Assembly (NCBI RefSeq): GCF_024502345.1 | Contig: NZ_JALDNN010000001.1 | Origin: Escherichia coli | Lineage (GTDB): Bacteria > Pseudomonadota > Gammaproteobacteria > Enterobacterales > Enterobacteriaceae | Direction: 5' to 3' (one strand) | DNA length: 64,000 nucleotides | In this document: piece by piece, positions 1 through 62,646 of the stretch | How the letters are laid out: each line of letters opens with the position of its first letter | Position numbering within the stretch: the stretch's first letter is position 1 | Notes under the pieces: generated by a model | Seen by the model: only the letters and a program-made list of their open reading frames with translations | The model's database searches: none | Told to the model about the DNA's origin: nothing | Position numbers and translations under genes: made by a program

Positions 1-1595
<1,595 letters not shown>

Positions 1596-2462: not shown

Positions 2463-2479
2463 CATCTTCTCCTGCATAT

Positions 2480-3424
2480 TCAGTTCTCTGTTCTGGCGCT
2501 TAACGAGCCAAATCCGGCAATCCACTCCGGGATTGGGCGGTAATAACGCCCTTCGCTACGCCAGTTGCCAAATGCAGAAATAGCGGCAAAAGCGGCGACC
2601 CAGGTTTTGATTTCATGTGTCGACTTTCCGGCAATGGCGGAAAGCTCTTCGTTACTGACGGCATCCAGTTCCTGTATGCGTCCCTGCTCCAGCAAAGTCA
2701 TGAACTGGTTATCCCAAATCGGGTTGAGCGGATGCAGAGTTCTCTGATCCTCAACAAACTTCTCAGCGGCGCTAATCACCCGTTGCTGACGCAATTCGCG
2801 CTCACTGGCGGGTAAATCTTTCCCGCTCCCCAACAGGCGGTCGCGCATATGGGCATCGGCTTTCGCCAGTTCGGGCACCGGCGGCTGATGGGAAAGCCCA
2901 CCGGAACCCAGGAACAGCACGCGTTTATTGAGAGTGCTGGTGAAACGTCCAATGGCTTCACCCAACATGCGGGTACGCTGGAAACCGGGCAGCGGCGTGG
3001 CGACACCGTTGATGAACACAGGCAGAACTGGCACCTTATCCAGCCCACCGAGCAGGAACTCCAGCGGCTGGGCGAACCCGTGGTCCACCTGCATACAGTA
3101 AGAAACGGCAAGATCGATCCCGCTCTTCATGACGGCATGCGCACAGGCCTCCGCCAGCTCCACAGGCACTGGCAGCTCTCCTGCCGCACTGCCGAAATCA
3201 CCAATTGCCGTCGCTCCAACGCCTAAACAGAACGGTGGCATCACGTCATAGAAAAAGCCGTTGTAGTGATCTGGCGCAAACAGCACCACCAGTTCAGGGG
3301 AGAAAGCCGCAATACGCTCGCGGGCGCTGGCAATCACGCCATTGACCTCATCGAGTACCTCTTGTGCTGGGTCGACATACCCCACCAGCGGCGAGTGGGA
3401 AAGACAATGAAGATAAGCGTGCAT
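2480..3424 (-). CDS. mhpB: 3-(2,3-dihydroxyphenyl)propionate 1,2-dioxygenase MhpB
   Basis: ORF 314 aa [21 protein letters not shown]...; extradiol dioxygenase; operon position between mhpA and mhpC. Confidence 0.9.
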
Positions 3425-3425
3425 A

Positions 3426-5090
3426 TCAGGCTACCTTTTCGACAGAAACGTCGGCATCAGGGCGGGTCAGCGTCATCACCGACGCCAGTTTATTCAGGGT
3501 CTTGCCCAGGGTTTGCGGAATGGCGGTGGCGGCAACAAAGCGATCCGGGCGCATCACCACCAGCGAAGCATTGTGTTGCGCGAACCAGCTACGCAGACGA
3601 CATTGCGTATCCCCCACGCGTAGTACGCCGTCGTGGTTATCCTGTGCGGTATGAATTTGCACTTCCGGCACCACCTGAATGAAGCGTGTGCCCAACGCGC
3701 GCCACTGCTGGATTTGCTCGTCGCTCATCCCCCATAGTGGATTGCATCCCCAGCCAATTACTGCGAAGTTCGCGCCAATCGCGTTATCGAGCAGCGTCAC
3801 GTCGCCGTTTTCCAGCGTGACTTTCGGCTGAATAAACATCTTGCCGACCGGAGAGTGCTTCGCTTCGCCCTCTCGCACCAGCGCACCGCCGTAATATTGC
3901 GGCATCGGCTTGAAGCGCATTTCGAGGAAGTAGCGTTTTACTGGCGGCAGATAATTCAGCAGCCAGGAAACGCCGTCACGTAACGTACCCTGCCAGCGTT
4001 TCGGCGGAGCCAGCACGTTGCCCGCCGTCACGGACAGGTCAATCATCGCTTTGGCGTGATCGCGACGTTCTTGTTGATAGGTATCGAGCAGCGCATCGCG
4101 GGCTTTCCCCTGGATAACCAACGCCAGTTTCCATGCGAGGTTAAAGGCGTCGCGCATGCCACTGTTATAGCCCTGCCCCTGCCATACCGGCATGATGTGT
4201 GCGGCATCGCCCGCCAGCAGTACGCGATCAATACGGAAACGTTGCGCCAGTCGCGCGTTGTGGGTGTAGACACGCTGGCGAATCAATTCAACATTGTCCG
4301 GATTAGGCAGCACTTTGCTTAACAGCTTGCGCATATTTTGCGGCTCACGCAGCTGTTCTTCGGTTTCTCCTGGCATCACCATAAATTCAAAGCGACGTAC
4401 CGCATGAGGTAGCGCGGCAGAAACATACGGGCGCACCGGATCGCAACACAAATAGATATGCGGCGTACTTAACGGATCGTTGGCGATATCTACCACAATC
4501 CACTGATTTGGCGCAGTTTTACCTTCAAACGGCACATTCAGAGTGCGACGGACAAAACTTGCTCCACCGTCACAGGCTACCAGCCACTGGGCTTTGACCG
4601 TTTCCCGCTGCCCTTCTGCCGTTTTCAGGTGCAAGGTCACTTCGTCATTTTGCTGGCTGAAGGCCTCCAGCTCGCGGGCAAACAAGCAGCGCACATTCGG
4701 AAAACGCGACAACCCTTCCAGCATCACCGCATCGACCTGAGGCTGAATAAAGGCGTTACGGCGCGGCCAGCCAAATTCATCGGTCATTGGCTGAATATCA
4801 GCAAAACAGCGGCCTTTCGGGGTGAGAAAACGCATCGCGTGCCACGGTGTAGTGTGCGGCAGAACATTATCGACCAGGCCAACCGACTGCATGGTGCGCA
4901 GCGCCTCGTCATCAATACCTATCGCACGCGGGTAGTCGATCAACTTATCGAGTTTCTCCACCACCAGCACGTCAATGCCCATCTGACCGAGATAGTTCGC
5001 CATCATCAGCCCGACCGGACCGGCACCAGCGATCGCCACCTGAACGCTATGGTTAACAGCAGGCTGGATGTCAGGGTGTTGTATTGCCAT
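3426..5090 (-). CDS. mhpA: 3-(3-hydroxyphenyl)propionate hydroxylase MhpA (FAD monooxygenase)
   Basis: ORF 554 aa with N-terminal FAD fold [29 protein letters not shown]; stop abuts mhpB start. Confidence 0.9.
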
Positions 5091-18728: not shown

Positions 18729-19088
18729 CAGGCATGATAAGACGCGCCTGCGTCGCATCAGGCATCTGAGCATGGTGTCGGATGCGGCGCGAGCGCCTTA
18801 TCCGACCTACGGTTCAGGCCTGTAGGCATGATAAGACGCGCCTGCGTCGCATCAGGCATCGGCGCATGGTGTCGAATGCGGCGCGAGCGCCTTATCCGAC
18901 CTACGGTTCAGGCCTGTAGGCATGATAAGACGCATCAGCGTCGCATCAGGCATCGGCACACGGTGTCGGATGCGGCGCGAGCGCCTTATCCGACCTACGG
19001 TTCAGGCCTGTAGGCATGATAAGACGCGTCAGCGTCGCATCAGGCATCGGCGCATGGTGTCGGATGCGCCACGCGACGCATCCGACAA
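18729..19088. repeat. BIME/REP array: ~94-bp unit repeated ~3.8 times between codB and prpE
   Basis: Direct repeats of ggcatgataagacgcgcctgcgtcgcatcaggcatc...gtcggatgcggcgcgagcgccttatccgacctacggttcaggcctgta starting near 18731, 18825, 18920, 19013. Confidence 0.7.
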
Positions 19089-19092
19089 TACC

Positions 19093-20979
19093 TTACTCTT
19101 CCATCGCCTGGCGGATCTGATCCAACGACGCAGGATCATCAATGGTCGTCAGATCCCCAGGATCGCGTCCTTCGCAAATCGCCTGGATCGTGCGGCGCAG
19201 CATTTTTCCGGATCGCGTTTTTGGCAATTGCGAGACAAACCAGACGTGCGCCGGGCGACCAAAGTTGCCAATCTGGCTGTCCACCAGCGCCATAATTGCC
19301 TTCTCTTGCGAATGCGCCACATCACGATCTTCCAGACTGTCGCTCTCTTTCGGAATGACAAACGCCACCGCCACCTGCCCTTTCAGCGCATCTTTCACCC
19401 CAACCACAGCCACTTCGGCAACGCCCGGATGACTGGAGATACTCTCTTCAATCTCGCGCGTCCCCAGCCGATGCCCGGCAACGTTAATCACATCGTCAGT
19501 GCGCCCGAGAATAAAGTGATAACCGTCAGCATCGCGGATGCCCCAGTCAAAGGTGGCGTATACCGGGCGGGAAAACAGCGACCAGTACGTCTTCACAAAG
19601 CGGTCGTCGTCACCCCAGATGGTCTGAATACAGCCCGGCGGCAGCGGCCCTTCCACCACCAGCATCCCTTTCTCATTGACGCCACACGGCTCGCCGGTGA
19701 CTTCATTGAGCAACTGCACGTTGTAGCCATACATCGGCACGCCGGGGCTTCCCAGACGCGTCGGCCTGTCGTCCAGACCGCGAGCAATCGCCATAATCGG
19801 CCAGCCGGATTCGGTCTGCCAGTAGTTGTCGATAACCGGCACATCCAGCGTATTGCTTACCCAACTGGCGGTTGGCTCGTCCAGCGGCTCCCCCGCCAGA
19901 TAGAGTACTTCCAGCGACGAAAGATCGTGTTTGCGAATTTCAGCGGTAGGGAATTTTTTCAGCACGCGAATGGCGGTCGGCGCCGAGAACATCCGGCTAA
20001 CCTGATATTTCTCGACGATTTTCCACCACACGCCGCAGTCCGGCCAGGTCGGTAATCCTTCGTAAACGATAGTCGCCATCCCCGCCAGCAGCGGCGCGTA
20101 GACGATATACGAATGCCCCACCACCCAGCCGATATCCGAAGCACAAAAGAACACACCGCCCGCTTTGCCGCCAAAAATGGTGTCCATCGAGGTCGCCAGC
20201 GCCACCGCATATCCGCCGACGTCACGCTGCACGCCTTTAGGTTTGCCGGTTGTGCCGGAGGTGTAGAGAATGCAGGAGGTTTCGTTGGATTCCAGCCACG
20301 CCACCGGTACCCGCGCGCCGATGTGTTGATGGCGCAACGACGCGAAATCGACATCCCGCCCGCTGACGCGCGCCATTTTCGCCAGCCCGCGATCCACCAG
20401 CAAAACATGGCGCGGCTGGTGCTGCGCCTGACTTATCGCATCGTCGAGCAATTTTTTATAGGGAATGATTTTGCCACCGCGCGCTCCGGCATCAGCCGAG
20501 ACAATCAGCACCGGTTTAGCGTCATCAATTCGCGCCGCCACACTGTGCGAGGCGAATCCCCCAAACACCACCGAGTGAATAGCGCCAATGCGCGCGCAGG
20601 CCAGCAGGGTAATATGCGCTTCGGCAATCATCGGCATATACACCAGCACCCGATCGCCACGCTGCACGCCCAGTGAGCGCAGCATTGACGCCACCGCGTT
20701 CACTTCGTCATGCAGCTGGCGAAAGGTAAAGGTGCGCTCTTCTTCTGTTTCCGAAGAGACGGCAATCAATGCCAGCGCCTCTGGCTGTTTCTCCAGCCAG
20801 CGGTCGATAGCGTTGTGGCACAAGTTGGTTCGGCCTTCACAAAACCAACGGGCAAACGGCGGATTGCTGTGATCGAGCGTTTGCGTAAAGGGCGTCTGCC
20901 AGTCAATACGCCGGGCCTGCTCGGCCCAGAACTGCTCCGGTTCGTTAATCGAACGCTGATAAAATTCGCTAAAAGACAT
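19093..20979 (-). CDS. prpE: propionate--CoA ligase PrpE
   Basis: 628-aa ORF MSFSEFYQRSINEPEQFWAEQARRIDWQTPF...; acyl-CoA synthetase motifs YTSGTTGKPKG. Confidence 0.9.
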   Translation of the reverse strand: MSFSEFYQRSINEPEQFWAEQARRIDWQTPFTQTLDHSNPPFARWFCEGRTNLCHNAIDRWLEKQPEALALIAVSSETEEERTFTFRQLHDEVNAVASMLRSLGVQRGDRVLVYMPMIAEAHITLLACARIGAIHSVVFGGFASHSVAARIDDAKPVLIVSADAGARGGKIIPYKKLLDDAISQAQHQPRHVLLVDRGLAKMARVSGRDVDFASLRHQHIGARVPVAWLESNETSCILYTSGTTGKPKGVQRDVGGYAVALATSMDTIFGGKAGGVFFCASDIGWVVGHSYIVYAPLLAGMATIVYEGLPTWPDCGVWWKIVEKYQVSRMFSAPTAIRVLKKFPTAEIRKHDLSSLEVLYLAGEPLDEPTASWVSNTLDVPVIDNYWQTESGWPIMAIARGLDDRPTRLGSPGVPMYGYNVQLLNEVTGEPCGVNEKGMLVVEGPLPPGCIQTIWGDDDRFVKTYWSLFSRPVYATFDWGIRDADGYHFILGRTDDVINVAGHRLGTREIEESISSHPGVAEVAVVGVKDALKGQVAVAFVIPKESDSLEDRDVAHSQEKAIMALVDSQIGNFGRPAHVWFVSQLPKTRSGKMLRRTIQAICEGRDPGDLTTIDDPASLDQIRQAMEE

Positions 20980-22503: not shown

Positions 22504-23673
22504 TTACTGGCGCTTATCCAGCGCGACAAACTGGCGGTCTTCCGGTCCAACATAATTGGCGGAAGGACGGATAATTTTGTTGTCCTGACGTTGTTCGATA
22601 ATGTGCGCCGCCCATCCGGTGACGCGGGCGATAACAAACAGTGGTGTGAACATCTCGGTGGGAACGCCCATCATGTTGTAGGAAACAGCGGAGAACCAGT
22701 CGAGATTGGGGAACATCTTTTTGCTCTCCCACATCACCGTTTCCAGACGATCGGCGATGTTGTACATCTTCAGCGAGCCGCCTTCCTGCGAGAGCTGCTT
22801 CGCCACACGTTTAATCACCTGGTGGCGCGGGTCGGCGATGGTATAAACCGGATGCCCAAAACCAATGACCACTTCTTTGTTTTCCACGCGCTTGCGGATA
22901 TCTGCTTCGGCTTCGTCTGGCGTTTCGTAGCGTTGCTGGATCTCCAGCGACACTTCATTCGCCCCGCCGTGTTTCGGCCCGCGCAGTGCGCCAATCGCGC
23001 CAATAATCGCGGAATACATATCAGAGCCAGTACCCGCAATCACCCGGCTGGTAAAGGTGGAGGCGTTAAACTCGTGTTCGGCGTACAGCACCAGCGAAAT
23101 ATGCATCGCCTTTTCCCAGCTTTGCGACGGCTTTTCGCCGTGCAGCAGATGCAGGAAGTGACCGCCGATGGAGTCGTCATCGGTTTCCGGCTGGATGCGT
23201 TCGCCGTTGTGGCTGTAGTGATACCAGTAGAGAAGAATCGAGCTAAGTGACGCCAGCAATTTGTCGGCAATATCCCGCGCGCCAGAGACGGTATGCCCCT
23301 CTTTTTCTGGCAGCGTGCAGCCGAGCGCGGAAACGCCGGTGCGCATAACATCCATCGGGTGTGACGCCGCCGGTAAGGCTTCCAGCACGGTACGCACGTT
23401 AGCCGGTAAACCGCGCAGGGCTTTCAGTTTCGTTTTGTAAGCGGCGAGTTCGTCACGGGTCGGCAGTTTGCCGTGGATCAGCAGATGCGCCACTTCTTCA
23501 AATTCGCAATGTTCCGCCAGATCAAGAATATCGTAACCACGGTAATGCAAGTCATTGCCACTTTTACCCACGGTGCAGAGCGCCGTATTGCCCGCCGGAA
23601 CGCCAGAAAGTGCTACCGATTTTTTCGGTTTAATGACATGGGTACTGTTTTGCAGGATCGTTGTGTCGCTCAT
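22504..23673 (-). CDS. prpC: 2-methylcitrate synthase PrpC
   Basis: ORF 22504..23802; start placed at [24 protein letters not shown] (389 aa). Confidence 0.9.
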
Positions 23674-23715
23674 ATTGTCCTCGTCATTGTTATCATTTGT
23701 AGGGTCGAGATTGTT

Positions 23716-23803
23716 GTCGGATGCGACGCCATGCGTCTTATCCGACCTACAGTTCAGTACACCCGTAGGCCTGATAAGTCGCGTCAGCGGCGCATCAGGC
23801 ATC
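23716..23803. repeat. REP element pair between prpB and prpC
   Basis: gtcggatgcgacgccatgcgtcttatccgacctac ... gtaggcctgataagtcgcgtcagcggcgcatcaggcatc. Confidence 0.6.
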
Positions 23804-23832
23804 GGTTGTCGAATACAACCAACGGGCGTTTT

Positions 23833-24723
23833 TTATTTCACCTGGCTACGGGCAAACAGGTCGTCGAGCTTCTCTTCGTACTGGTAGTAGTTGATGCTTT
23901 CGTACAGCTCGTTGCGGGTTTGCATAGTGTCGATGACACTTTTCTGCGTGCCTTCCTGACGCAGGACGTTGTAGACATGTTCAGCGGCGCGGTTCATGGC
24001 GCGGAACGCTGAAAGCGGGTACAGCGCCATTGCGACATGGGCGCTGCGTAATTCGTCGGTGGTAAACAGCGGCGTGGCACCAAATTCGGTAATGTTGGCG
24101 AGGATTGGCACCTGCACCGCATCGGCAAACTGGCGGTACATGGCGAGTTCGGTAATCGCCTCCGGGAACAACATCTCGGCACCCGCTTCAACATAGGCCT
24201 GCGCACGCTCGATCGCCGCATCCAGCCCCTCTACCGCCAGCGCATCGGTGCGCGCCATGATCACAAAATCAGGATCGGTTTTCGCATCCACCGCTGCACG
24301 GATCCGATCCACCATCTCCTCTTTCGAGACGATCGCTTTGTTCGGGCGATGACCGCAACGTTTCGCGCCAACCTGATCTTCAATATGCAATCCTGCCGCA
24401 CCGGCTTTAATCATCGATTTCACAGTGCGCGCCACGTTAAAAGCCGAAGATCCAAAACCGATATCCGCATCCACCAGCAGCGGCAGCGAGCAGACGTCGG
24501 TGATACGGCGAATGTCAGTCAGCACATCATCAAGAGTAGAAATACCGAGATCGGGCAGCCCCAGCGAACCTGCCGCCACACCACCGCCGGAGAGATAAAT
24601 CGCCTGATATCCGGCACGCTGCGCCAGCAGCGCATGGTTAGCGTTGATGGTGCCGACAATCTGCAATGGATTTTCTTTAGTGAGTGCAGCGCGAAACGCT
24701 TTACCTGGAGAGTGTAGAGACAT
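23833..24723 (-). CDS. prpB: 2-methylisocitrate lyase PrpB
   Basis: 296-aa [55 protein letters not shown]... Confidence 0.9.
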
Positions 24724-24770
24724 AGCCCATCCTTTGTTATCAACTTGTTATTTACGTTGATAAAGACAAA

Positions 24771-24786
24771 GCAAGGGGTGTGCCAC
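24771..24786 (-). promoter_or_regulatory. sigma-54 (-24/-12) promoter of prpBCDE
   Basis: Minus-strand TGGCACaccccTTGC (reverse complement of gcaaggggtgtgcca) ~50 nt upstream of prpB ATG. Confidence 0.6.
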
Positions 24787-24961
24787 AATTGCCTGAATAA
24801 AATTAAATGCTTAATTTCAATTTGTTAGAGATAAACCCATGAATTAATCCGCAAATATGCGTTTCAGTTAACGTTTCAGGCAATGTTTCACTGCGTTTCA
24901 TTGCAACAATTATGAAACAAGACTAAACCCACTATTCGGTTTCTTAACTTTGCGGTGCGCT

Positions 24962-25095
24962 ATGGCACATCCACCACGGCTGAATGACGACAAACCGGTT
25001 ATCTGGACGGTATCTGTAACGCGGCTGTTCGAGCTGTTTCGCGATATCAGTCTCGAGTTTGATCACCTGGCGAACATTACCCCTATCCAGCTTGG
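24962..25095 (+). pseudogene. prpR: prpR fragment (sigma-54 activator of prpBCDE), first ~45 codons only, cut by IS1
   Basis: [45 protein letters not shown] then IS1 left inverted repeat begins at 25096. Confidence 0.8.
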
Positions 25096-25151
25096 CGGTG
25101 ATGCTGCCAACTTACTGATTTAGTGTATGATGGTGTTTTTGAGGTGCTCCA

Positions 25152-25427
25152 GTGGCTTCTGTTTCTATCAGCTGTCCCTCCTGTTCAGCTACTGACGGGG
25201 TGGTGCGTAACGGCAAAAGCACCGCCGGACATCAGCGCTATCTCTGCTCTCACTGCCGTAAAACATGGCAACTGCAGTTCACTTACACCGCTTCTCAACC
25301 CGGTACGCACCAGAAAATCATTGATATGGCCATGAATGGCGTTGGATGCCGGGCAACCGCCCGCATTATGGGCGTTGGCCTCAACACGATTTTCCGCCAT
25401 TTAAAAAACTCAGGCCGCAGTCGGTAA
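25152..25427 (+). CDS. insA: IS1 InsA
   Basis: 91-aa [94 protein letters not shown]. Confidence 0.9.
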
Positions 25428-25849
25428 CCTCGCGCATACAGCCGGGCAGTGACGTCATCGTCTGCGCGGAAATGGACGAACAGTGGGGATACGTCGGGGC
25501 TAAATCGCGCCAGCGCTGGCTGTTTTACGCGTATGACAGGCTCCGGAAGACGGTTGTTGCGCACGTATTCGGTGAACGCACTATGGCGACGCTGGGGCGT
25601 CTTATGAGCCTGCTGTCACCCTTTGACGTGGTGATATGGATGACGGATGGCTGGCCGCTGTATGAATCCCGCCTGAAGGGAAAGCTGCACGTAATCAGCA
25701 AGCGATATACGCAGCGAATTGAGCGGCATAACCTGAATCTGAGGCAGCACCTGGCACGGCTGGGACGGAAGTCGCTGTCGTTCTCAAAATCGGTGGAGCT
25801 GCATGACAAAGTCATCGGGCATTATCTGAACATAAAACACTATCAATAA
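25346..25849 (+). CDS. insB: IS1 InsB reading frame (expressed as InsAB' by -1 frameshift)
   Basis: ORF ...[130 protein letters not shown]. Confidence 0.85.
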
Positions 25850-25864
25850 GTTGGAGTCATTACC

Positions 25865-26518
25865 CGCTTTGTCGATCAGATCTCCGGCGGGCAGCAGCAG
25901 CGCGTGGCGCTGGCCCGCGCGCTGATCCTCAAGCCGAAAGTGCTGCTGTTTGATGAGCCGTTGAGTAACCTCGACGCCAACCTGCGTCGCAGCATGCGCG
26001 ACAAGATCCGCGAGTTGCAAAAGCAGTTTGATATCACCTCGCTGTACGTCACCCACGATCAGAGCGAAGCCTTTGCGGTTTCTGATACTGTGCTGGTGAT
26101 GAACAAGGGACACATCATGCAGATCGGCTCACCGCAGGATCTTTACCGCCAGCCCGCCTCCCGCTTTATGGCGAGCTTTATGGGCGATGCCAACCTGTTC
26201 CCGGCAACCTTCAGCGACGGATACGTTGATATCTACGGCTATCATCTGCCGCGCCCGCTGCACTTTGGTACACAGGGTGAAGGGATGGTCGGTGTGCGCC
26301 CGGAAGCGATCACGCTCAGCGATCGCGGCGAAGAGAGCCAGCGCTGCGTGATCCGCCATGTCGCCTATATGGGGCCGCAGTATGAAGTGACGGTGGAATG
26401 GCACGGGCAGGAGATATTATTGCAGGTCAACGCTACGCGTCTGCAACCGGACGTCGGCGAGCAGTATTATCTTGAAATCCATCCGTACGGCATGTTTGTT
26501 CTGGCGGATGCGGCATAA
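25865..26518 (+). pseudogene. afuC: ABC transporter ATP-binding protein fragment (afuC/fbpC-like), N-terminus with Walker A missing
   Basis: Reading frame opens directly at IS1 right end: RFVDQISGGQQQRVALARALILKPKVLLFDEPLSNLD (ABC signature + Walker B) but no upstream Walker A. Confidence 0.7.
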
Positions 26519-26532
26519 CGTTTTGTGGTTTT

Positions 26533-26599
26533 GTAGGCCGGATAAGGCGCTTGTGCCGCCATCCGGCAATGCCTGATGCGCTGCGCTTATCAGGCCTAC
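26533..26599. repeat. REP element pair between afuC fragment and mmuM
   Basis: gtaggccggataaggcgcttgtgccgccatccggcaat gcctgatgcgctgcgcttatcaggcctac. Confidence 0.6.
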
Positions 26600-26626
26600 A
26601 ATGAACGATGTAGACCCGATAAACCC

Positions 26627-27559
26627 TCAGCTTCGCGCTTTTAACGCGGCGATATCCGCAGGCGTGGTGCGACAGCACCCGCCAATCAACCGTGCGCCAG
26701 CGGCCTGCCACTGCGGCAGATAATCCGCCAGCTGCGCGCAATGTTCACCGTGATGATGCCAGGTTTTGCTCACGGCATCGTAATGCTCGCCCGAGTTCGG
26801 ATACACCACCAGCGGCAGCACCGTTAAACCGTGTAAATGCTGCAACGCAGCGGTGGTGTTTTCCAGCGCAATACAGTTAATGCCTAGCGCCACCACCTGC
26901 GGATAACCCGCCAGCAACGCAACCACGTCACGCAGCGGCGTACCGTCGCTCAGGTGTTCGCTGTCGCGCAGGGTAAATGAGAACCACGCCCGCGCACGCG
27001 GATATGCGGTCAACAGCTCGGCCAACGCCTCAATCTCGGAAAAATTCGGCAGGGTTTCGCAGGCCAGCAGATCGGCCCCGGCATCCAGCAAGGCTTCCAC
27101 GCGCGGGCGATGAAACGCCTGAAATGCCTCAACGCTACAATGATAATCGCCACGGTATTCAGAGCCATCCGCCAGATACGCGCCGTAAGGCCCGACGGAT
27201 CCCGCCACCAGAAGCGTTCCCGCCTGCGGGTTCTCTGCCAGATACGCTTCACGGGCTTTACGCGCCAGCTCCACGCTTTTGCCAATCAGCGCTTTCGACT
27301 GCGCTTCATCCAGACCTCGCGCGGCGAAGCCCGCCGGCGTCGCCTGATAGCTGGCAGTGATCGCGCATTGCGCCCCCGCCCGGTAGTAATCAAGATGCAC
27401 TTCGCGGATAAGCTCCGGGTTTTCTACCAGCACTTTGGCTGACCACAGGCTGTCGGCTAAGTTACACCCTCGCGCTTCCAGCTCCGTCGCCATCGCGCCA
27501 TCCAGCAGCAGGATATCCTGTTTATCAAGAAGAGCGCGTAACGGATTATTCTGCGACAT
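26627..27559 (-). CDS. mmuM: homocysteine S-methyltransferase MmuM
   Basis: ORF 26627..27703; start placed at [34 protein letters not shown] (310 aa); C-terminal GGCCRTTP zinc site. Confidence 0.9.
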
Positions 27560-28949
27560 GTTCTGGCTCCTGTTTTGCGTTTCGGGGTTGAGTAAGGAAA
27601 TAAGCACCATAGCACAACGCAACAAACGGTAACCCGCACCACAACGCAATTCTCTGCGCTGGATCGAATGCCAGCCCAACACAGGCCACCAGGCACAGCA
27701 CAAAACCTAATACTGGCACCAGCGGATACCACGGCGCGCGATAATGTAATTCACTCAATGCCTTACCTTGTTGCAGATGACGGCGACGAAAAACAAAATG
27801 CGAGGCGCAGATACTCAGCCACACCGCTACCACCGCAAACCCGGAGATTGCCGACAGCGCAACAAATACCGTGTCCGGGGCCACCACGCTGGAAAACAGC
27901 GCCAGCACACCACCGAGCATACTGACCGACAGCGCCGTCAGTGGCACGCCGTTTTTCGTTACTCGCGCAAAACAGGCCGGTAGCGTACGTTCATTCGACA
28001 ACGACCACAGCATGCGCCCGGAGGCATATAACCCGGAGTTCGCTGCAGAAAGAATAGCCGTCAGGATCACGAAGTTAAAAATATCAGCGGCGTACGGGAT
28101 CCCTACTTTCTCAAATACCAGCACAAACGGGCTTTTCTCCACGCCCGCCTGCTGCATCGGGATCAGCGCTGCCAGCACAAACACGGTGCCGATAAAGAAA
28201 ATAATCAGTCGCGCGATGGTAGTACGAATCGCTACCGGGATAACTTTGCGCGGGTTTTCCGTTTCACCGGCGGCAATGCCGATAAGCTCGGTACCCGAAA
28301 AAGCAAAGTTCACTGCCACCATAGTCATCAAAATCGGTAAGCCACCGTGCGGGAACCAGCCTTCTGCCGTGATATTACTCAGCCCCGGCGCGGGCGAGCC
28401 ATCCTGCATCGGAATAAAGCCGAAAATCGCCGCCCCACCGAGGATGATAAAGGCGATGATAGTGACCACTTTGACCAGCGAGAACCAGAACTCCCCTTCG
28501 GCAAAAAAGCGCGTGGAGATAACATTCAGACCAAAAATAATCGCGCAGAACACCACGCACCAGACCCATACCGGCACCTGTGGAAACCAGTACTGCATAC
28601 AGAATCCAGCGGCGGTAAAGCTCGAACCCAGCGCCACGGTCCAGGTCAGCCAGTAAAGCCAGGCCACGGTATACCCGGTAGCCGGACCAAGATAGCGCGC
28701 GGCATAAACGTGAAACGCTCCGGTCTCCGGCATCGCGACCGACAGCTCGCCCAGACACTGCATAACCAGCCAGACCACCAGCGCACCAATCAGATAGGCC
28801 AGCAGCGTTCCCGCCGCTCCAGTGGTGGAAATGATGTACCCGGTATTGAAGAATAATCCTGTGCCAATCACGCCGCCCAAGGAAAGCATAATCAGGTGAC
28901 GCGTTTTCATTGTGCGCTTCAGTGGCGCATTTTGTTGTGTTGTTTGCAT
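27546..28949 (-). CDS. mmuP: S-methylmethionine permease MmuP (APC family)
   Basis: ORF 27546..28973; start placed at [37 protein letters not shown]. Confidence 0.9.
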
Positions 28950-29223
28950 ATAACCTTCTAAACGCATGGACATCTAAACATCCAAAGAAGGTTTGTTATA
29001 CCGCGTTTGTTAACAGAATGCAAAGTCAACCCTGCACCAGACGCAGATGCCCGCGCCGGGCGCTTAATAGCGGGTGGGGATTAATAATCAGATACAAAAA
29101 GGGCCGCCAGCTCATAACGCCTCCGTTGCCATGTTTTATCTAAACTTTGGCACCACAGTTGACTGACGGCGTTAACCCGGAAGTGGGAATCAAATCTCCC
29201 CACTCCCACAACCGGATGAATGC

Positions 29224-36515: not shown

Positions 36516-39838
<3,323 letters not shown>

Positions 39839-40055
39839 AATTTAACCTTCATTTGATGTTGAATTGAACATATCAAAATCAGGCAATTACACAAATATAT
39901 GTACAGGCTCGCACCTGGGCTTGCCTGACTGACCGCAGGCCGGCGACGACAAGGTGGAAAAGTTCGGCGTGTGGCTCTGGCGGCAACGATCCCGCGAAGG
40001 GCGGACGGTGCTTGAGCTGTTGAACGTAAGCATGCGGGCAAACCATCTTGCGCGA

Positions 40056-40428
40056 CTATGCCGGATGCCACCTATGCGGCAGCAGCTCTGCAATCTCACT
40101 AGCTCGCTGCGTCGGCAACCGTCTCAGCACATCCTTGAGATAGGCATACGGATCGTGCCCATTATTACGGGCCGACTGGATCAAACTCATGATCGCAGCA
40201 GCGCGCTTGAGCATGCGAACCCGCGCCGAGCATTTGAGAAGGCAACGGGATGAACGCTGGCTGGATAGCCGTGGTTTTCTGGGTAAGCAGGCGAATCCAT
40301 TTGTGGACGAGGTTGGCATTGAGGCTGTAGCCCAAGGCGATGTTTGCGATGGAGGCACCGGGTTCAGAACACTCCTGAATGACCTGGGCCTTGAAAGATT
40401 TGCTGTAGGTACGGCGCTGAGGGCGCAT
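40056..40428 (-). mobile_element. IS66-family remnant: TnpA N-terminal part joined to TnpC C-terminal tail (internal deletion)
   Basis: MRPQRRTYSKSFKAQVIQECSEPGASIANIALGYSLNANLVHKWIR (IS66 TnpA-like HTH) and, in another frame, ...AAAIMSLIQSARNNGHDPYAYLKDVLRRLPTQRASEIAELLPHRW (IS66 TnpC C-terminal motif). Confidence 0.5.
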
Positions 40429-40935
40429 GGAAAATCCGCTTGATGGGCCATGGCCTTCGGCGGCGGTGTCGGGAAGGTGTGTTGGCCGGACGGATACTGT
40501 TGAACTACGTTGTCTGGGGCAACGGAAGTGTTTCGGCCCGACTCTGGAACGCGATCCGCAGCGACGACTGGGCAATTCCGCACGTTGGCCTGAGCAGCCT
40601 CGGGGAAATCGTCGTCTGGGCGCGCCCAGACGAGTTTCCGCCAAGGAACATGCAGACAAGCAAGGGGCTGCGGGCACTCGGCTACAACGTGAGGATCGGT
40701 GTTTGATCGAGGCGCCTGTGGCACACGCAGGCTGAGGAGCCAGGCGCTGTCCATTGCCTGATCAGGCCGCCCCCCTGTGCCTTGCCTGAGCAGTTGACCT
40801 GCATCAATGGGGCGGGAGAACGCTGCACATTGCACTCTTGACTCCTGAAGTTTTTCATGGTAAGCCTAATATTACAAAGTATTGCAAGGATTTCCTTGGC
40901 CGGAACCGCAAAGCGACGCGATTGGAGAGGGTGAG

Positions 40936-41251: not shown

Positions 41252-41821
41252 ATGGACATCGATTTCAAGAAGTTGGCTCCCTGGAACTGGTTCAAGAACG
41301 AGCAGCAAGAGCAGCAGACCGCCTCTTCCCTGCCGGTGCAGCGCAATGACCTGCCAGCGGCGAGCGGGCCAGTCAGCCCGATCCTGCAACTGCGTCGGGA
41401 AATCGACCGGCTGTTCGATGACGCATTCCGGGGCTTCGGTTTTCCGGCGTTGAACATGCCGCAGTGGCCATCCGATTGGTCGGGCATGCTGAAGCCGGCC
41501 CTGGACATCCAGGAAACCGACAAGCAGTACAAGATTGCCCTGGAAGTGCCCGGTGTCGAGGAGAAGGACATCCAGATCACCCTCGACAACGACGTGCTGA
41601 TGGTGCGTGGCGAGAAGCGCCAGGAACAGGAGAAGAAGGAAGGTGGCTTCCACCGTGTGGAGCGCTCCTACGGCAGCTTTCAGCGTGCCTTGAACCTGCC
41701 TGACGACGCCAACCAGGATTCGATCAAGGCATCGTTCAAGAACGGGGTGCTCACGGTCACGATCGACAAGCGCGAGGTCAGCGCGCCGAAGCAGGGACGC
41801 TCGATCCCGATCAACGGCTGA
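41252..41821 (+). CDS. small heat-shock protein (Hsp20/alpha-crystallin family)
   Basis: 189-aa ORF with alpha-crystallin domain ...DIQETDKQYKIALEVPGVEEKDIQITLDNDVLMVRGEKRQEQEKKEGGFHRVERSYGSFQRALNLPDDANQDSIKASFKNGVLTVTI. Confidence 0.85.
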   Translation: MDIDFKKLAPWNWFKNEQQEQQTASSLPVQRNDLPAASGPVSPILQLRREIDRLFDDAFRGFGFPALNMPQWPSDWSGMLKPALDIQETDKQYKIALEVPGVEEKDIQITLDNDVLMVRGEKRQEQEKKEGGFHRVERSYGSFQRALNLPDDANQDSIKASFKNGVLTVTIDKREVSAPKQGRSIPING

Positions 41822-41926
41822 CGTCGCCGGCTCGTTCGTCACAAGAAAAACCCGTCCCGAGACGAGGTGTCGCGGCTCGCGATGCCTCGTCGCCTCAACC
41901 TTTTCAACCTTCTAAGGAGCATCAGC

Positions 41927-44809
41927 ATGGCCAGAAAACAATGCCAGGTCTGCGGCCAACCCGCCACCGTGCGGGTGGAAGCCAATCTCAACGGTCGTCA
42001 CAGCACCATGCTGTTGTGCGACGACCATTACCGGCAATTAGTGCGCCAGCAAAAGCGCACCGTTTCGCCGCTGGAAGCCTTGTTCGGTTCGCGCAGCGGC
42101 CTGTTCGAGGACTTCCTCGGCAGTGACTTCTTCCGCATCGGCGACGACGCGACGCCAGTTGCCGCCGATACCGATGACGTGGTCGATGCCTCGTTTGGCG
42201 AGCCCGCCGCCGCAGGTTCGGGTGCGCCGCGCCGTCGCGGCAGTGGGCTGGCCAGCCGCATCAGCGAACAGTCGGAAGCCTTGTTGCAGGAGGCCGCCAA
42301 ACACGCTGCCGAATTTGGCCGCTCCGAGGTGGATACCGAACATCTGCTGCTGGCGCTGGCCGACAGCGACGTGGTCAAGACCATCCTGGGTCAGTTCAAG
42401 ATCAAGGTCGATGACCTCAAGCGGCAGATCGAGTCTGAGGCCAAGCGCGGGGACAAGCCCTTCGAGGGCGAGATCGGCGTGTCGCCGCGCGTGAAGGATG
42501 CGCTCAGCCGCGCCTTCGTGGCCTCCAATGAACTCGGTCATTCTTATGTCGGTCCAGAGCATTTCCTGATTGGTCTGGCCGAGGAAGGCGAAGGGCTGGC
42601 CGCCAACCTGCTGCGCCGCTACGGCCTGACGCCGCAGGCGCTGCGCCAACAGGTCAGCAAGGTGGTCGGCAAGGGCGCCGAGGATGGACGCGCTGAGACG
42701 CCGACCAACACGCCCGAGCTGGATAAATACTCGCGCGACCTCACCAAGATGGCGCGCGACGGCAAGCTCGACCCGGTGATCGGCCGCGCGCAGGAGATCG
42801 AAACCACCATCGAGGTGCTGGCCCGGCGCAAGAAGAACAACCCGGTGCTGATCGGCGAGCCGGGTGTGGGCAAGACCGCCATCGTCGAAGGGCTGGCGCA
42901 GCGCATGGTGGCGGGTGAAGTGCCCGAGACCTTGCGCGACAAGCGCCTGGTGGAACTCAACATCAACGCCATGGTGGCCGGCGCCAAATATCGCGGCGAG
43001 TTCGAGGAGCGCGTGCAGAAGGTGCTGAAGGAGGTGACCGAGCACCAGGGCGAGCTGATTTTGTTCATCGACGAGGTGCACACCATCGTCGGTGCCGGCC
43101 AGGGCGGTGGCGAAGGCGGGCTGGACGTGGCCAACGTATTCAAACCGATGATGGCGCGCGGTGAACTCAACCTGATCGGCGCCACGACGCTGAACGAGTA
43201 CCAGAAATACATCGAGAAGGATGCCGCACTGGAGCGGCGCTTCCAGCCGGTGACGGTGCCCGAGCCGACGGTGGCCCAGACCATCATGATTCTGCGCGGC
43301 CTGCGCGACACCTTCGAGGCGCACCACAAGGTCAGCATCTCCGAGGACGCGATCATCGCGGCGGCCGAGTTGTCCGACCGCTACATCACGGCGCGCTTCC
43401 TGCCGGACAAGGCGATCGACCTGCTCGACCAGGCGGCCGCGCGCGTGAAGCTGTCGGCCACGGCCCGGCCGGTGGCCGTGCAGGAGCTGGAGTCCGAACT
43501 GCACCAGCTGCGGCGTGAACAGGATTACGTGGCCGCGCGCAAGCAGTACGACCAGGCCGCCGAGCTCGGCAAGCGCATCGAAGCCAAGGAGACCGAGCTC
43601 AAGAAGCTCGTCGAGAACTGGGAGCGGGAGCGGGCCTCCGGCAGTGCAGAGGTCAAGGCGGAACACGTGGCGCAGATCGTCTCGCGCCTGACCGGCATCC
43701 CTGTCAACGAGTTGACGGTGGAAGAGCGCGAAAAGCTGCTGCACTTGGAACAACGGCTGCACGAGCGCCTGGTGGGACAAGACGAGGCGGTCCGTGCCGT
43801 GGCCGATGCCGTGCGGCTGTCCCGCGCCGGCCTGCGCGAAGGCAGCAAACCGGTGGCTACCTTCCTGTTTCTGGGCCCGACCGGGGTGGGCAAGACCGAG
43901 CTCGCCAAGGCATTGGCCGAATCGATCTACGGCGATGAGCACGCCCTGTTGCGCATCGACATGTCGGAATATGGCGAACGCCATACCGTGGCGCGGCTGG
44001 TGGGCGCGCCTCCGGGCTATGTCGGTTACGACGAAGGCGGTCAGCTCACCGAGAAGGTGCGGCGCAAGCCCTACAGCGTGCTGCTGCTCGACGAGATCGA
44101 GAAGGCACACCCTGACGTCTACAACATCCTGCTGCAAGTGTTCGACGACGGTCGCCTCACCGACGGCAAGGGCCGGGTGGTGGATTTCACCAACACCATC
44201 ATCATCGCCACGTCCAACCTGGGTTCGGACATCATCCAGCGACGGCTGAAGGCGCGTGGGGCGGCCGACGAGGAGTACGAAAAGACCAAGGCCGAGGTCA
44301 TGGACGTGCTGCGCGGCCACTTCCGGCCCGAGTTCCTCAACCGCATCGACGAGATCATCGTCTTCCATGCGCTGGGTAAGGAGGAGATCCGCCACATCGT
44401 CGGCCTGCAGCTCGATCGCGTGGCGCGCAGCGCCGCCAGCCAGGGCGTGACGCTCACTTTCGATCAGACGCTGATCGACCATTTCGCGGAAGAAGGCTAC
44501 AAACCCGAGTTCGGTGCGCGTGAACTCAAGCGCCTGATCCGCAGCGAGCTGGAAACTGCGCTGGCGCGCGAGATGCTCGGTGGCGGCATCGGCAAGGGCG
44601 ATCACGCCAGCGCACGCTGGGACGACAAGGCCGAACGCGTGGTGTTCGAACGCAAAGAGCCACTGCAGACCCCGGCCGAGCCGGAGCAGCCGGATGCCGC
44701 GAAGGCGACCGAGCCGGAGCAGCCGGATGCCGCGAAGGCGACCGAGACGCCGCACGGCGACGCTGGCAAAGGCTCGCGCAAGAAGAAGTCGGCGAGCGAC
44801 GCATCTTGA
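41927..44809 (+). CDS. clpK: ClpK/ClpG-type stand-alone AAA+ disaggregase (two AAA domains, N-terminal zinc-binding extension)
   Basis: ORF 41867..44809; start at [15 protein letters not shown] after aaggag; Walker A GEPGVGKT / Walker [10 protein letters not shown] (AAA1), GPTGVGKT / [11 protein letters not shown] (AAA2); ClpB-like M-domain. Confidence 0.9.
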
Positions 44810-45060
44810 TGGCGGGCGAGGCTGCCGTGTCCGACCCCAAGGGCCTGGCATGGGCAGCCTCCCTGGCCTCGATCGCGGTGGCGTTCGTGGCCGCGGGTCA
44901 CGCGGTCGTCTACAAGCGTGATCCGCGGTCGACCACGCCGTGGGGGCTGCTCATCAGCGGCGGCACTGCCCTCCCGCTCGCTGGCCATCCGTTTGCGTGA
45001 CGGTGCGGCCCGTCTGTTCACCTGATCCTCTGGCAACTCGACTTTCGAGGAACACAGCCC

Positions 45061-46788
45061 ATGGAAAAAAAGAATCAATGGAATACCGGCTACTGGATCG
45101 TTGCCCTCCTGCTGTTGTTGAGTTTGCAGAGCTACTGGCAGACGGCGAAAACCGTCGAGCCGGTGCCCTACAGCGAGTTCGAGAAGGCGCTGGCCGAGGG
45201 GCGCGTGGCCGAAGTGCTGGTGTCGGATCGTACGGTGACCGGGCGCCTGAAGTCGCCGGACAGCCGGGGCAAGACGACGATCGTGGCAACGAGGGTCGAA
45301 CCCGATCTTGCCGATCGCCTGTCGAAGTACGACGTGCCCTATGCCCGCGTGTTGGAGAGCACCTGGCTGCGCGATGTGCTGTCGTGGATCCTGCCAGCGG
45401 TAGCCTTCTTTGGCGTCTGGTTCTTCCTGTTCCGCCGCTTCGCCGAGAAGCAGGGCATGGGCGGGTTTCTCAACATCGGTAAGAGCCGCGCCAAGGTGTT
45501 CGTGGAAAAGAACACCGGTGTGACGTTCGCCGATGTCGCGGGGGGGGATGAGGCCAAGGCGGAGCTGGTCGAGATCGTCGATTTCCTGAAGAATCCGCAG
45601 GACTATGGCCGTCTCGGGGCGCGCATTCCCAAGGGCGTGTTGCTGGTCGGCCCACCGGGCACCGGCAAGACATTGCTGGCCAAGGCTGTTGTCGGCGAGG
45701 CGGCGGTGCCCTTCTTCTCCATCTCCGGATCAGAGTTTGTCGAGATGTTCGTCGGCGTGGGTGCGGGCCGCACGCGCGGCGTCGGCGGCCACGACGAGAG
45801 CGAGCAGACCCTCAACCAACTGCTCACGGAGATGGACGGCTTCGACAGCTCGGTCGGGCTGATCATCCTCGCCGCCACCAACCGCCCCGAAATCCTCGAC
45901 CAGGCTCTGCTGCGTGCCGGCCGCTTCGACCGCCAGGTGCTGGTGGACCGGCCCGACAAGAAGGGGCGGCTGGACATCCTGAAGGTTCATGTCAAGAAGG
46001 TGACGCTGGCCCAGGATGTAGACCTCGAACAGGTAGCAGCACTGACCACGGGCTTTTCCGGCGCGGACCTCGCCAATAGGGTCAACAAGGCGGCGCTGGC
46101 GGCGAGGAGACGCCGTGCGTCCGCCGTGGAATTGCAGGACTTCACCGCGACCATCGAGCGCATCGTGGCGGGCCTGGAAAAGAAGAGCCGCGTGCTCAAT
46201 CCCAAGGAGCGGGAAACCGTGGCCCATCACGAGATGGGCCATGCGCTGGTGGCGCTGGCGCTGCCCGAAACCGACCCCGTACACAAGATCTCGATCATCC
46301 CGCGCGGCATCGGCGCGCTGGGCTACACCTTGCAGCGCCCCACCGAAGACCGCTTCCTGATGACGCGTACCGATCTCGAGCACAAGATCGCCGTACTGCT
46401 GGGCGGGCGTGCCGCCGAAAAGCTGGTGTTCGGCGAGTTGTCTACCGGGGCGGCGGACGATCTGGCGCGAGCCACCGACATCGCCCGCGACATGATCACC
46501 CGCTTTGGCATGGACGAGGGCCTGGGCTACATCGCCTTCGAGGCGCAGCGGCCCCGCTTTCTCGATACACCGGAACTGGCCCACGGCGGTTGCCGGGTGG
46601 CCGAATCGACCCAGGCGCGCATCGATCAGGCTATCCGCGACATCGTGATGGGCGTGTTCGAGCGCGCCTACCGGATTCTCGACATCTACCGCGCGGTGCT
46701 GGAGCGCTGCGCGCGCGAGCTGCTGGCGCGGGAAGCGCTCGACGAAAGCGATATCCGTCAATTGACTCAAGGACTTGTTCGGAACTGA
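45061..46788 (+). CDS. ftsH: FtsH-family membrane AAA+ zinc metalloprotease (island copy); apparent in-frame gap removing Walker B
   Basis: 575-aa ORF; two N-terminal TM segments, Walker [34 protein letters not shown], zinc site HEMGHAL; only GRTRGVG between GVGA and GHDE. Confidence 0.8.
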
Positions 46789-46875
46789 AAACAGTAGTAG
46801 GTGCCATTCAGAGTAAACCGACGGCTCTGTTCAGTGCGTCATCCAATTCGTCGGCATTGTTCAAGGAGAACCGAT

Positions 46876-47334
46876 ATGTCTGCATTGACTCCGTGGGACC
46901 CCTTCCGGGAACTGGATGAATTGCAAAACCGCCTGGCGACGATGTTCGGACGAATACCCCAGCGACAGGGCGCCCGTACCGGCAACGAAGCCATGACCAC
47001 GGCGGACTGGGCACCAATGGCGGACATCAGCGAGGATGAGAACGCATTCCTCCTCAAGCTGGATCTGCCGGAGGTCCCCAAGGATGCCGTGCGCGTCAGC
47101 GCGGAAAACGGTGTGCTCACCATCAGCGGCGAGCGCAAACTGGAAAAAGAGGAGCAGGGCAAGAAGTTCCACCGCATCGAACGTGCGTATGGCCGCTTTG
47201 TGCGCAGCTTTGTCTTGCCTGACAACGTTGATCCGACCAAGGTGACGGCTTCCATGAAAGACGGCGTACTGGAAGTGCGGCTTGTCAAGGCCGAGCAAGC
47301 CAAACCGAAACAGATTGAAATCTCAGTCAACTAA
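46876..47334 (+). CDS. small heat-shock protein (Hsp20 family), second copy
   Basis: ORF 46801..47334; start placed at MSALTPWDPFRELDELQNRLATMF after aaggag; alpha-crystallin core ...FLLKLDLPEVPKDAVRVSAENGVLTISGERK... Confidence 0.85.
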   Translation: MSALTPWDPFRELDELQNRLATMFGRIPQRQGARTGNEAMTTADWAPMADISEDENAFLLKLDLPEVPKDAVRVSAENGVLTISGERKLEKEEQGKKFHRIERAYGRFVRSFVLPDNVDPTKVTASMKDGVLEVRLVKAEQAKPKQIEISVN

Positions 47335-47356
47335 CTTCAATCAGGAGCCCAAGATC

Positions 47357-48271
47357 ATGAATATCAAACAGCCACAATACACCTTCTCCGCACTTGCCCT
47401 GGCGGTCGTCGTCGGACTGAGCGGACCGGCTCTGGCCCAATCGGCGGCAGGTTCTAGCCCAGGTGCTGCAGCCCCCTCTGCCGCATCCAAGGCGGCACAG
47501 CCACAAGTAGATGACAAGGCCGCCCGGGAAGCCGATAAAAAGCGTGCCGAGCTCACTCAAGACGCCATCACGGCGCTCACCAAGACCCAGGAGGCTTTGA
47601 CCCTCCTTGATGCAAAGAAGACCAAGGAGGCGCTTGCTGCGCTGGAACTGGCCAGCGGAAAGCTGGAACTGGTATTGGCACGTGACGCCAAACTTGCTTT
47701 GGCGCCGGTCGATGTACGCGTCATCACCCACGATATCCACGCCAACGTGGAATCGGTAAAGAAAGCGGTCAAGTTGTCTCGGGAGTTGTTGGGTGATGGC
47801 GAGGTGCAAAAGGCCCGGCCCATCGTTGCCAATCTGGCCAGCGAAATCGTAATCCAAACCGACAACCTTCCGATGGCAACGTACCCGGCAGCGATCAAGT
47901 CGGCCGCACGGCTCATCGACAGCGGCAAGATCGACAACGCCAAAGCGGAACTCGCCCGAGCACTGAACACGCTGGTGGTGACCTCGGTCGCCTTTCCTCT
48001 GCCCGTGCTACGGGCCGAAGCCGCGATGGCAAAAGCTGAAAAGCTGGCCGAGACCGACAGGCGCGATGCCAAGCAGAACGAGGAGCTCAGCACCTTGCTG
48101 TCGTCCGTGCGCACGGAGATCGAGATGGCGCAGATCCTGGGTTATGGCAAGAAGGCGGACTTCAAACCCATTTTCGATCAGGTGAAGTCCATTGAGCAAA
48201 AGTCGGCTGGTGGCAAAAGCGGCAAGGGATGGTTCGACGAGTTGAAGACGCGCATCCAAAAGCTGTTTTGA
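47357..48271 (+). CDS. yfdX: YfdX-family periplasmic protein (tLST YfdX1-like)
   Basis: ORF 47282..48271; start at MNIKQPQYTFSALALAVVVGLSGPALAQ (signal peptide); Ala/Lys-rich helical protein; position in tLST order. Confidence 0.65.
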   Translation: MNIKQPQYTFSALALAVVVGLSGPALAQSAAGSSPGAAAPSAASKAAQPQVDDKAAREADKKRAELTQDAITALTKTQEALTLLDAKKTKEALAALELASGKLELVLARDAKLALAPVDVRVITHDIHANVESVKKAVKLSRELLGDGEVQKARPIVANLASEIVIQTDNLPMATYPAAIKSAARLIDSGKIDNAKAELARALNTLVVTSVAFPLPVLRAEAAMAKAEKLAETDRRDAKQNEELSTLLSSVRTEIEMAQILGYGKKADFKPIFDQVKSIEQKSAGGKSGKGWFDELKTRIQKLF

Positions 48272-48373
48272 GGTGATGAAGGGGCTGACTGCTCTGTCGG
48301 TCAGTCTCGCGATGTTCGCATTCAGCCCCAACAGATTCGCCTATTTTCACTATCTCATACGAGGCATATCACC

Positions 48374-49261: not shown

Positions 49262-49270
49262 AACCGCTGG

Positions 49271-49295
49271 AGAGGGGGCGCATAGTGCCCCCTCT
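49271..49295 (+). terminator. GC-rich hairpin downstream of yfdX2 (possible intrinsic terminator; U-tract not immediately adjacent)
   Basis: agagggggc-gcatagt-gccccctct perfect 9-bp stem, followed ~20 nt later by tttgattttttattttg. Confidence 0.35.
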
Positions 49296-49350
49296 CTTGT
49301 CCCATGAGTGTTTGATTTTTTATTTTGTATAGATCTTTAGGAGATATTGC

Positions 49351-49962: not shown

Positions 49963-50041
49963 GAGCGTGCCAAACCAAAATCTATGGATATGAGCATCCT
50001 CGATTCATGCCTCCATAGAAATGACATCGAAGGAGTCATAC

Positions 50042-51617: not shown

Positions 51618-51620
51618 CCG

Positions 51621-54773: not shown

Positions 54774-54797
54774 TTGCCCATCAACAGGAGACGTCTC

Positions 54798-62587: not shown

Positions 62588-62646
62588 GCTCTGCGCAAAC
62601 AGCGAAGCATAAAGAGCAACTTCAGCACGATAGCCAGCTTCGCTGG

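Follow-up and report, generated by a model that had tools for sequence, protein, structure and literature searches.

A 64-kb stretch of Escherichia coli DNA (contig NZ_JALDNN010000001.1; hereafter the window) carries a complete copy of the insertion sequence (IS) IS1 that joins the first codons of prpR, encoding the σ54-dependent activator PrpR, to the middle of afuC, encoding an ABC ATPase. This joint was probably, though with no great confidence, left behind by a chromosomal deletion anchored at IS1 on the border of a heat-resistance island and formed through one-ended intramolecular IS1 transposition. The joint is composed of the following features:

24962-25096, plus strand: prpR', the first 45 codons of the gene for the σ54 activator PrpR
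24962-25123, plus strand: PrpR'-IS1 fusion open reading frame (ORF), 53 codons, of which 45 are native and 8 IS1-encoded, followed by TAG
25097-25864, plus strand: complete IS1 of 768 bp, identified by its ends, ORFs and profile matches
25865-26518, plus strand: 'afuC (fbpC), codons 132-348 plus the stop codon

The prpR frame starts with the ATG at 24962, and its native part ends with ...ITPIQLG at 25096. From there it continues for 8 codons into IS1 (GDAANLLI) and stops at the TAG at 25121-25123. The translated remnant is identical to residues 1-45 of K-12 PrpR, leaving 45 of 528 residues, and the statement in a preliminary description of this region that prpR is cut after about 45 codons at the left end of IS1 proved exact to the base. 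The same description had an ABC ATPase opening mid-gene without its Walker A motif on the other side, where only AfuC residues 132-348 are indeed present. The 9 bp to the left of IS1 (CAGCTTGGC) differ from the 9 bp to its right (CGCTTTGTC) and the two 15-bp flanks have no k-mer of 5 or more bases in common; the reported lack of an 8-9 bp target duplication around the element was thus borne out. Since simple insertion of IS1 generates a target duplication of 8-9 bp (PMC12428005), its lack here argues against simple insertion, but not against the identity of the element as IS1.

The element itself has the size, termini and coding organization of IS1. Its left end reads GGTGATGCTGCCAACTTACTGAT... 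and its right end ...ATCAATAAGTTGGAGTCATTACC (longer right-end stretch: ...AAGTTGGAGTCATTACC), imperfect terminal repeats of about 23 bp (GGTGATGCTGCCAACTTA... and GGTAATGACTCCAACTTA...) align as expected at the two ends of the 768 bp, and both transposase frames are present together with the A6C motif:

about 25097-25119, plus strand: left inverted repeat (IRL), from the alignment of the ends
about 25842-25864, plus strand: right inverted repeat (IRR), from the alignment of the ends
25152-25427, plus strand: insA, 91-aa InsA, NCBIfam NF033558 (IS1 family transposase)
25346-25849, plus strand: insB frame, 167 aa, NCBIfam NF033558 (IS1 family transposase)
about 25398-25409, plus strand: A6C site for programmed -1 frameshifting, with the motif TTTAAAAAAC

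This is the single IS1 copy in the window, and it differs from IS1B of E. coli K-12 at 2 of 768 positions (99.74% identity).

Alignment of the flanks to K-12, which had been proposed as a check, yielded a single gap. Window positions 23713-25096 correspond to K-12 positions 349,693 down to 348,309 and window positions 25865-29125 to K-12 positions 278,409 down to 275,149, so that the flanks have the same order and the same orientation in both genomes and are separated in K-12 by 69,899 bp (278,410-348,308). An inversion was ruled out, as both flanks are in the reference orientation. The 69.9 kb represent the missing interval in K-12 coordinates and not the size of one event, because the junction between the right end of IS1 and 'afuC (IS1|'afuC) pre-existed and is found base-identical in other strains. 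Relative to the arrangement of strain AH04 the window has lost a further 12,040 bp, and relative to that of strain G3/10 a further 3,280 bp. The proposal of an IS1-mediated deletion therefore stands with regard to the collinear flanks and the flush cuts, whereas K-12, against which it had been framed, is the wrong yardstick. Strain G3/10 has the same island, with an identical IS1|'afuC end, at the canonical thrW-proA-proB-phoE site; its yah genes break off at IS1, and K-12 is collinear with it throughout the region, so that the corresponding joint in G3/10 must be a true deletion.

Comparison with other strains places the joint of the window in a nested series around one and the same IS1. The IS1|'afuC junction is base-identical, and IS1 itself identical at 768 of 768 positions, in AH04, AH02, CT01, G3/10, CX08 and CX12. 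Strains LHM10-1, A30 and CP52E share the match across the junction, which was verified at base level in LHM10-1, but carry a 7-bp deletion inside IS1. The index of an assembly collection lists a 204-aa 'AfuC ORF in 256 blocks, and the junction was identical in 9 of the 10 further contigs retrieved through it. Opposite this constant junction, the DNA that abuts the left end of IS1 varies:

left partner lctP: AH04, LHM10-1 and contig L038
left partner rclC/DUF417: contig L037
left partner yahM (K-12 equivalent 345,027): G3/10 and contig L036
left partner 'mrkB: CX12
left partner prpR': the window

The other terminus varies as well, with three extents of DNA loss flush with IRR:

loss of 0 bp: K-12, N9 and Z226-5, which keep 348 bp of 'afuB and the full afuC
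loss of 187 bp: ST540
loss of 753 bp: AH04, G3/10, CX12 and the window

Strains Z226-5 and AH04 have an identical lctP|IS1 left junction, yet differ by 753 bp on the right. A single chromosomal IS1 has thus lost DNA again and again at either terminus while the opposite junction was kept, which is the defining behavior of IS1 adjacent deletions (PMC9330008). Neither the full joint of the window nor its prpR'|IS1 left junction was found in any of 5,426 complete E. coli genomes, and a 50-mer spanning the left junction was absent from a set with one genome per GTDB species. Three further arrangements were observed at this locus, namely plasmid-like genes (repB, integrase) left of IS1 in ST540 (L008), a deletion within afuB'-afuC that does not abut the IS in 027_SK3 (L007), and an mrk (type 3 fimbriae) segment between two IS1 copies in CX12 (L006).

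This series also bears on the idea that nothing was deleted at all, and that the island or an IS1-bounded segment instead entered prpR by cointegration or composite transposition, the rest of prpR then lying at the far island end beside a second IS1. The right flank is mobile DNA that is 99.9% shared between unrelated backgrounds, and the window stops short of the far island end and contains no tRNA gene, so that thrW would lie beyond its right end; both observations are compatible with such an insertion. The order and orientation of the flanks are nevertheless those of the standard chromosome, the island in G3/10 is located at thrW-proA with the yah genes ending at IS1 and no second copy of the flank at its far end, and the left partners lctP, rclC, yahM and prpR all belong to one side of the island and follow in chromosomal order, as nested deletions would. 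Insertion of the island into prpR is hardly credible in view of this pattern.

Adjacent deletions by IS1 have been reported to have one endpoint exactly at an IS1 terminus (PMC9330008, citing Turlan and Chandler 1995). The joints described here resemble them in that they start at one terminus, keep the IS and the other junction, lack a duplication and have variable distal endpoints, and differ from them in forming a natural series that involves both sides of IS1 and unrelated strain backgrounds, with transposase dependence presumed. In such a scenario, the resident IS1 would be an old copy at the afuB/afuC edge of a CP4-6-like island, with IS1B at afuB' as its K-12 counterpart. A first step, which would predate the lineage of the window, would be a 753-bp IRR-flush deletion that removed 'afuB and afuC codons 1-131 and produced the IS1|'afuC junction. 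In a second, lineage-specific step, IRL of the same IS1 would have been joined to prpR nt 135 with loss of the interval, i.e., prpR codons 46-528, yahO, yahN and yahM plus whatever separated yahM from the island in this background. One-ended intramolecular replicative transposition of IS1 into a preferred target in prpR could account for this second step, as it would retain the IS and the other junction and create no duplication. We infer both the involvement of the transposase and this order of events.

The breakpoint in prpR was found to recur. Eight public contigs (L014-L021) encode precisely this 53-aa PrpR'-IS1 product; three of them (ERR1600703, SRR16124226 and ERZ19692964) carry the backbone of the window with at least 99.9% identity; among the remaining fusion contigs, one has a flank 99.93% identical to K-12 and the others are 96-97% identical to the window. 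At least three haplotypes occur in the last 373 nt before the junction, separated by up to 12 substitutions, one of which is located 10 bp from IS1. If the fusion had arisen only once and then spread by recombination, a crossover must have fallen within the 10 bp between this single-nucleotide polymorphism (SNP) and IS1; it is simpler to assume that IS1 reached this nucleotide, in the same orientation, in two or more independent events. These data suggest that prpR nt 135 may be a preferred IS1 target. The heptamer CATTACC, which resembles the IS1 end, is located 16-22 bp from the prpR target (chance of about 0.04 per 60 nt) and was found at none of the other junction flanks, which could be a weak hint of a hot spot. 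PrpR proteins starting at the GTG of codon 50, used as an indirect proxy for a 3' remnant left after insertion, matched only IS1-free loci.

A more far-reaching interpretation would be that prpR nt 135 is an IS1 hot spot, specific as to site and orientation, which IS1 has reached independently in several E. coli lineages with convergent, possibly selected, loss of the activator, and that the island-border IS1 has served as a standing "deletion engine" that eroded the host ykg/lut, bet, yah and prpR genes stepwise after entry of the island; this interpretation is put forward only tentatively.

Two sets of contigs were set aside in this comparison. A metagenome contig (L019) in which IS1 runs into a PAS/Aer-like gene could be a chimera over the repeat and was not counted as a partner. 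A 41-aa partial PrpR, indexed in 869 blocks, was considered as evidence of further IS breaks and rejected, as the public contigs concerned, which number in the hundreds, break at prpR nt 125, beside a common C/T SNP at nt 126. This polymorphism (window position 25087) affects the third position of codon 42, and the breaks at nt 125 probably reflect strain mixtures in the samples rather than gene truncations.

The left side of the window (1-25096) is an ordinary chromosomal run, mhp-lacIZYA-cynXSTR-codAB-prpEDCB, whose best identity among the 5,426 complete genomes is 98.2-98.3%, with 96.5-96.7% for the prpB-prpR' stretch. Over the right side (25865-64000), 74 complete genomes match the window with 99.8-99.9% identity. 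Identity leaps exactly at IS1, from at most 98.2% on the left to 99.8-100% on the right, which places IS1 exactly where host-type DNA meets a widely shared mobile island. The source lineage has no close complete genome; the closest matches over the prp region are the three contigs named above (L015, L016 and L021), with at least 99.9% identity.

Several of these observations weigh against one-ended transposition as the origin of the joint. Its end product is identical to that of an insertion followed by recombination between two IS1 copies; the junction of prpR nt 135 with IRL exists in at least three haplotypes, so that IS1 arrives there independently and the deletion may have been preceded by a simple insertion; and none of the complete genomes exceeds 98.2% identity over the left flank, so that none can stand for the direct progenitor arrangement. 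Moreover, only 64 kb are visible, and although no further prpR, yahO, yahN, yahM, yahL or yahK DNA was found within them, the rest of the genome could contain the deleted genes or a second prpR. The corresponding alternative is a simple IS1 insertion at prpR nt 135, in the same orientation as the island IS1, with subsequent homologous recombination between the two copies, either within the chromosome or by one crossover inside IS1 during import of the island from a donor. Some of the fusions on the 8 contigs, with their three or more haplotypes, are likely plain insertions, recombination is predicted to leave a product without target duplication, as seen here, and a crossover inside IS1 during import would be expected to produce the sharp identity change at IS1, although this change fits either route. 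On the other hand, the simple-insertion allele (the IS1 right end followed by CAGCTTGGC and prpR from codon 46 on) was found in 0 of the 5,426 complete genomes, and contigs from Joint Genome Institute (JGI) metagenomes contained neither the right junction of a simple prpR insertion nor the left junction. IS1 in the window is identical to the island copy at 768 of 768 positions, without signs of a chimeric IS1, which is weakly informative, and each of the approximately 8 distinct joints would need an extra insertion and recombination, making this course of events less parsimonious. Insertion followed by recombination is therefore considered possible but doubtful, and one-ended transposition is retained as the preferred origin of the joint.

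An assembly artefact, in which two real copies (prpR'-IS1-X and Y-IS1-'afuC) were collapsed and the DNA between them skipped, would be conceivable for a 768-bp multicopy repeat such as IS1. The full prpR'-IS1-'afuC joint is confirmed by no independent assembly, the short-read contigs with the fusion all stop 26-140 nt into IS1, and the one contig that crosses IS1 has another partner. However, the window passes unbroken through remnants of IS30, ISEc52, IS256 and IS5, and its island agrees with finished genomes over the full length; this uninterrupted run through other IS copies makes a repeat-induced misjoin less likely and suggests an assembly of long-read quality. In addition, the two partners are the nearest collinear neighbors in the same orientation, which a random misjoin would rarely pick, and finished genomes contain similar joints at the same IS1. 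Taken together, these observations make an artefact improbable.

The prpBCDE operon, which encodes the structural genes of the 2-methylcitrate pathway, appears otherwise intact to the left of the joint:

19093-20979, minus strand: prpE, open ORF of 628 aa
21019-22470, minus strand: prpD, open ORF of 483 aa
about 22504-23673, minus strand: prpC, spanned by an open ORF
23833-24723, minus strand: prpB, open ORF of 296 aa; NCBIfam methylisocitrate lyase, 560.9 bits
24770-24785, minus strand: σ54 (-24/-12) promoter of prpBCDE, TGGCACACCCCTTGCT, 47 nt upstream of the prpB ATG
24860-24885, plus strand: two adjoining CGTTTCA-type partial matches to the PrpR enhancer consensus CGTTTCATGAAACG, with 3 mismatches each

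The lengths of the prpE, prpD and prpB ORFs (628, 483 and 296 aa) equal those of the annotated genes in AH04, G3/10 and GDSC2227PM. The σ54 promoter had been described as intact, and TGGCACACCCCTTGCT was recovered at the expected place as the sole match to TGGCAC-N5-TTGCW in the 64-kb window. The two CGTTTCA-type matches to the enhancer consensus (PMC4987338) are putative PrpR enhancers, neither of them being significant alone. In contrast to the promoter, the activator gene is destroyed, as had been claimed. Only positions 4-48 of the 538 positions of the NCBIfam PrpR profile are matched, with 72 bits against a cut-off of 703. Lacking the full set of PrpR_N, AAA+ σ54-activation and C-terminal helix-turn-helix domains, prpR' is a gene remnant and not a functional member of the family. 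Transcription of prpBCDE requires σ54 and the enhancer-binding protein PrpR, whose signal is 2-methylcitrate (PMC4987338, citing Palacios and Escalante-Semerena 2000 and 2004). Because prpBCDE depends on PrpR, its dedicated activator, which has been cut to 45 residues, the operon is predicted to be uninducible, and the strain should be unable to use propionate via the 2-methylcitrate cycle. The fact that the prpBCDE ORFs are still open suggests that the deletion event was recent. Between codB and prpE, a REP/BIME-like palindromic unit of 94 bp is repeated 3.6 times in tandem (18730-19068; 95% matches), and a similar unit of about 94-100 bp is found between prpC and prpB (23713-23811), where contig L018 has three copies.

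The window would thus represent a heat- and chlorine-tolerant E. coli lineage that carries a stress-tolerance locus (tLST) and is predicted to be unable to induce propionate catabolism. At this locus the lineage is also without the K-12 afuC-prpR interval, with its yah, bet and ykg/lut genes in K-12 order. Such a defect could be relevant for fitness in the gut, where propionate is abundant. The joint, being absent from 5,426 complete genomes, may be a precise lineage marker, and the approximately 8 natural joints at one chromosomal IS1 give an unusually clean natural picture of IS1 eroding an island border in both directions. Studies of IS1 target choice could make use of the recurrent prpR target.

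With regard to known systems, IS1B of K-12 at afuB' in the cryptic prophage CP4-6 (b0263-b0265) is the same element at the same locus as the IS1 of the window, and the K-12-type IS1|'afuB junction is also found in N9 and Z226-5. Compared with K-12, the window is 753 bp shorter on the afu side, its IS1 abuts prpR rather than IS30B/yagB at the other end, and its island additionally carries tLST and a foreign mhp cluster. Wan et al. (2023; cited in PMC12428005) reportedly described IS1-related deletions in the nfsB region of E. coli. Those deletions, found in clinical and laboratory E. coli and compared here by citation only, are likewise large, bounded by IS1 and responsible for the removal of metabolic genes, but concern a different locus. 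Islands with tLST are known to be flanked by mobile elements, with IS5, IS3 and Tn7 described as flanks (PMC8290217), and the right flank of the window holds a complete tLST identical to that of AH04, G3/10, E. coli C and others. The tLST papers examined make no mention of a border IS1 or of prpR loss, and a literature search for prpR together with IS1 yielded nothing but spurious hits (pRprA plasmids, strain lists). While the mechanism is textbook, this particular joint occurs in none of the 5,426 complete genomes, and two points extend the preliminary description, namely the tLST-border IS1 with its two-sided nested series and the recurrent prpR target.

On the right side of the joint, the 'AfuC fragment is 100% identical to residues 132-348 of the full-length protein of strain N9. 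It starts 5 residues before LSGGQ and retains the ABC signature, Walker B, the H-loop and the TOBE domain, whereas Walker A (GPSGCGKT, residues 39-46) and the Q-loop are gone. The fragment matches positions 132-350 of the 351 positions of the NCBIfam ferric ABC ATPase model with 404.8 bits, below the cut-off of 496, and with Walker A missing it does not constitute a complete nucleotide-binding domain. Just past the afuC stop codon and before mmuM, repetitive extragenic palindromic (REP)-type palindromes (GCCGGATAAGGCG... and ...GCCTGATGCGCTGCGCTTATCAGGCC) are located at 26519-26600. The island continues from there with the following features:

26627-27559, minus strand: mmuM, intact; NCBIfam equivalog, 454.9 bits
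27546-28949, minus strand: mmuP, intact; NCBIfam equivalog, 981.9 bits
29224-36513: foreign mhpT-E-F-D-C-B-'mhpA cluster, a second copy located in the island
36578-40800: remnants of IS30, ISEc52 and IS256
about 41252-55949: tLST/LHR stress-tolerance locus, a complete set by identity to the annotated regions of N9 and Z226-5
right of tLST, to 64000: IS5 remnant, CP4-6-type ykf/yaf genes and an Ag43 island, annotated from N9 and Z226-5

The 'afuC-mmuM-mmuP segment is 99.94% identical to CP4-6 of K-12. The tLST region, 99.8-99.9% identical to N9, Z226-5, AH04, E. coli C and others, comprises the set hsp20-clpK-ftsH-hsp20GI-yfdX1/2-hdeD-trx-kefB-psiE-htpX-degP, as indicated by transferred annotation; the right flank belongs to a CP4-6-like island that carries tLST. 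The island mhp cluster is 82.7% identical to the native mhp genes of the window (1-4805) and 78.5% identical to the Klebsiella pneumoniae copy, suggesting an origin in some other enterobacterium, and its mhpA is cut at an IS30/IS911-type junction. Compared with Z226-5 (L012), the window is without segments of about 0.66 kb and about 2.2 kb in the antirestriction/Ag43 region of a second, inverted island (61966-62655 onward).

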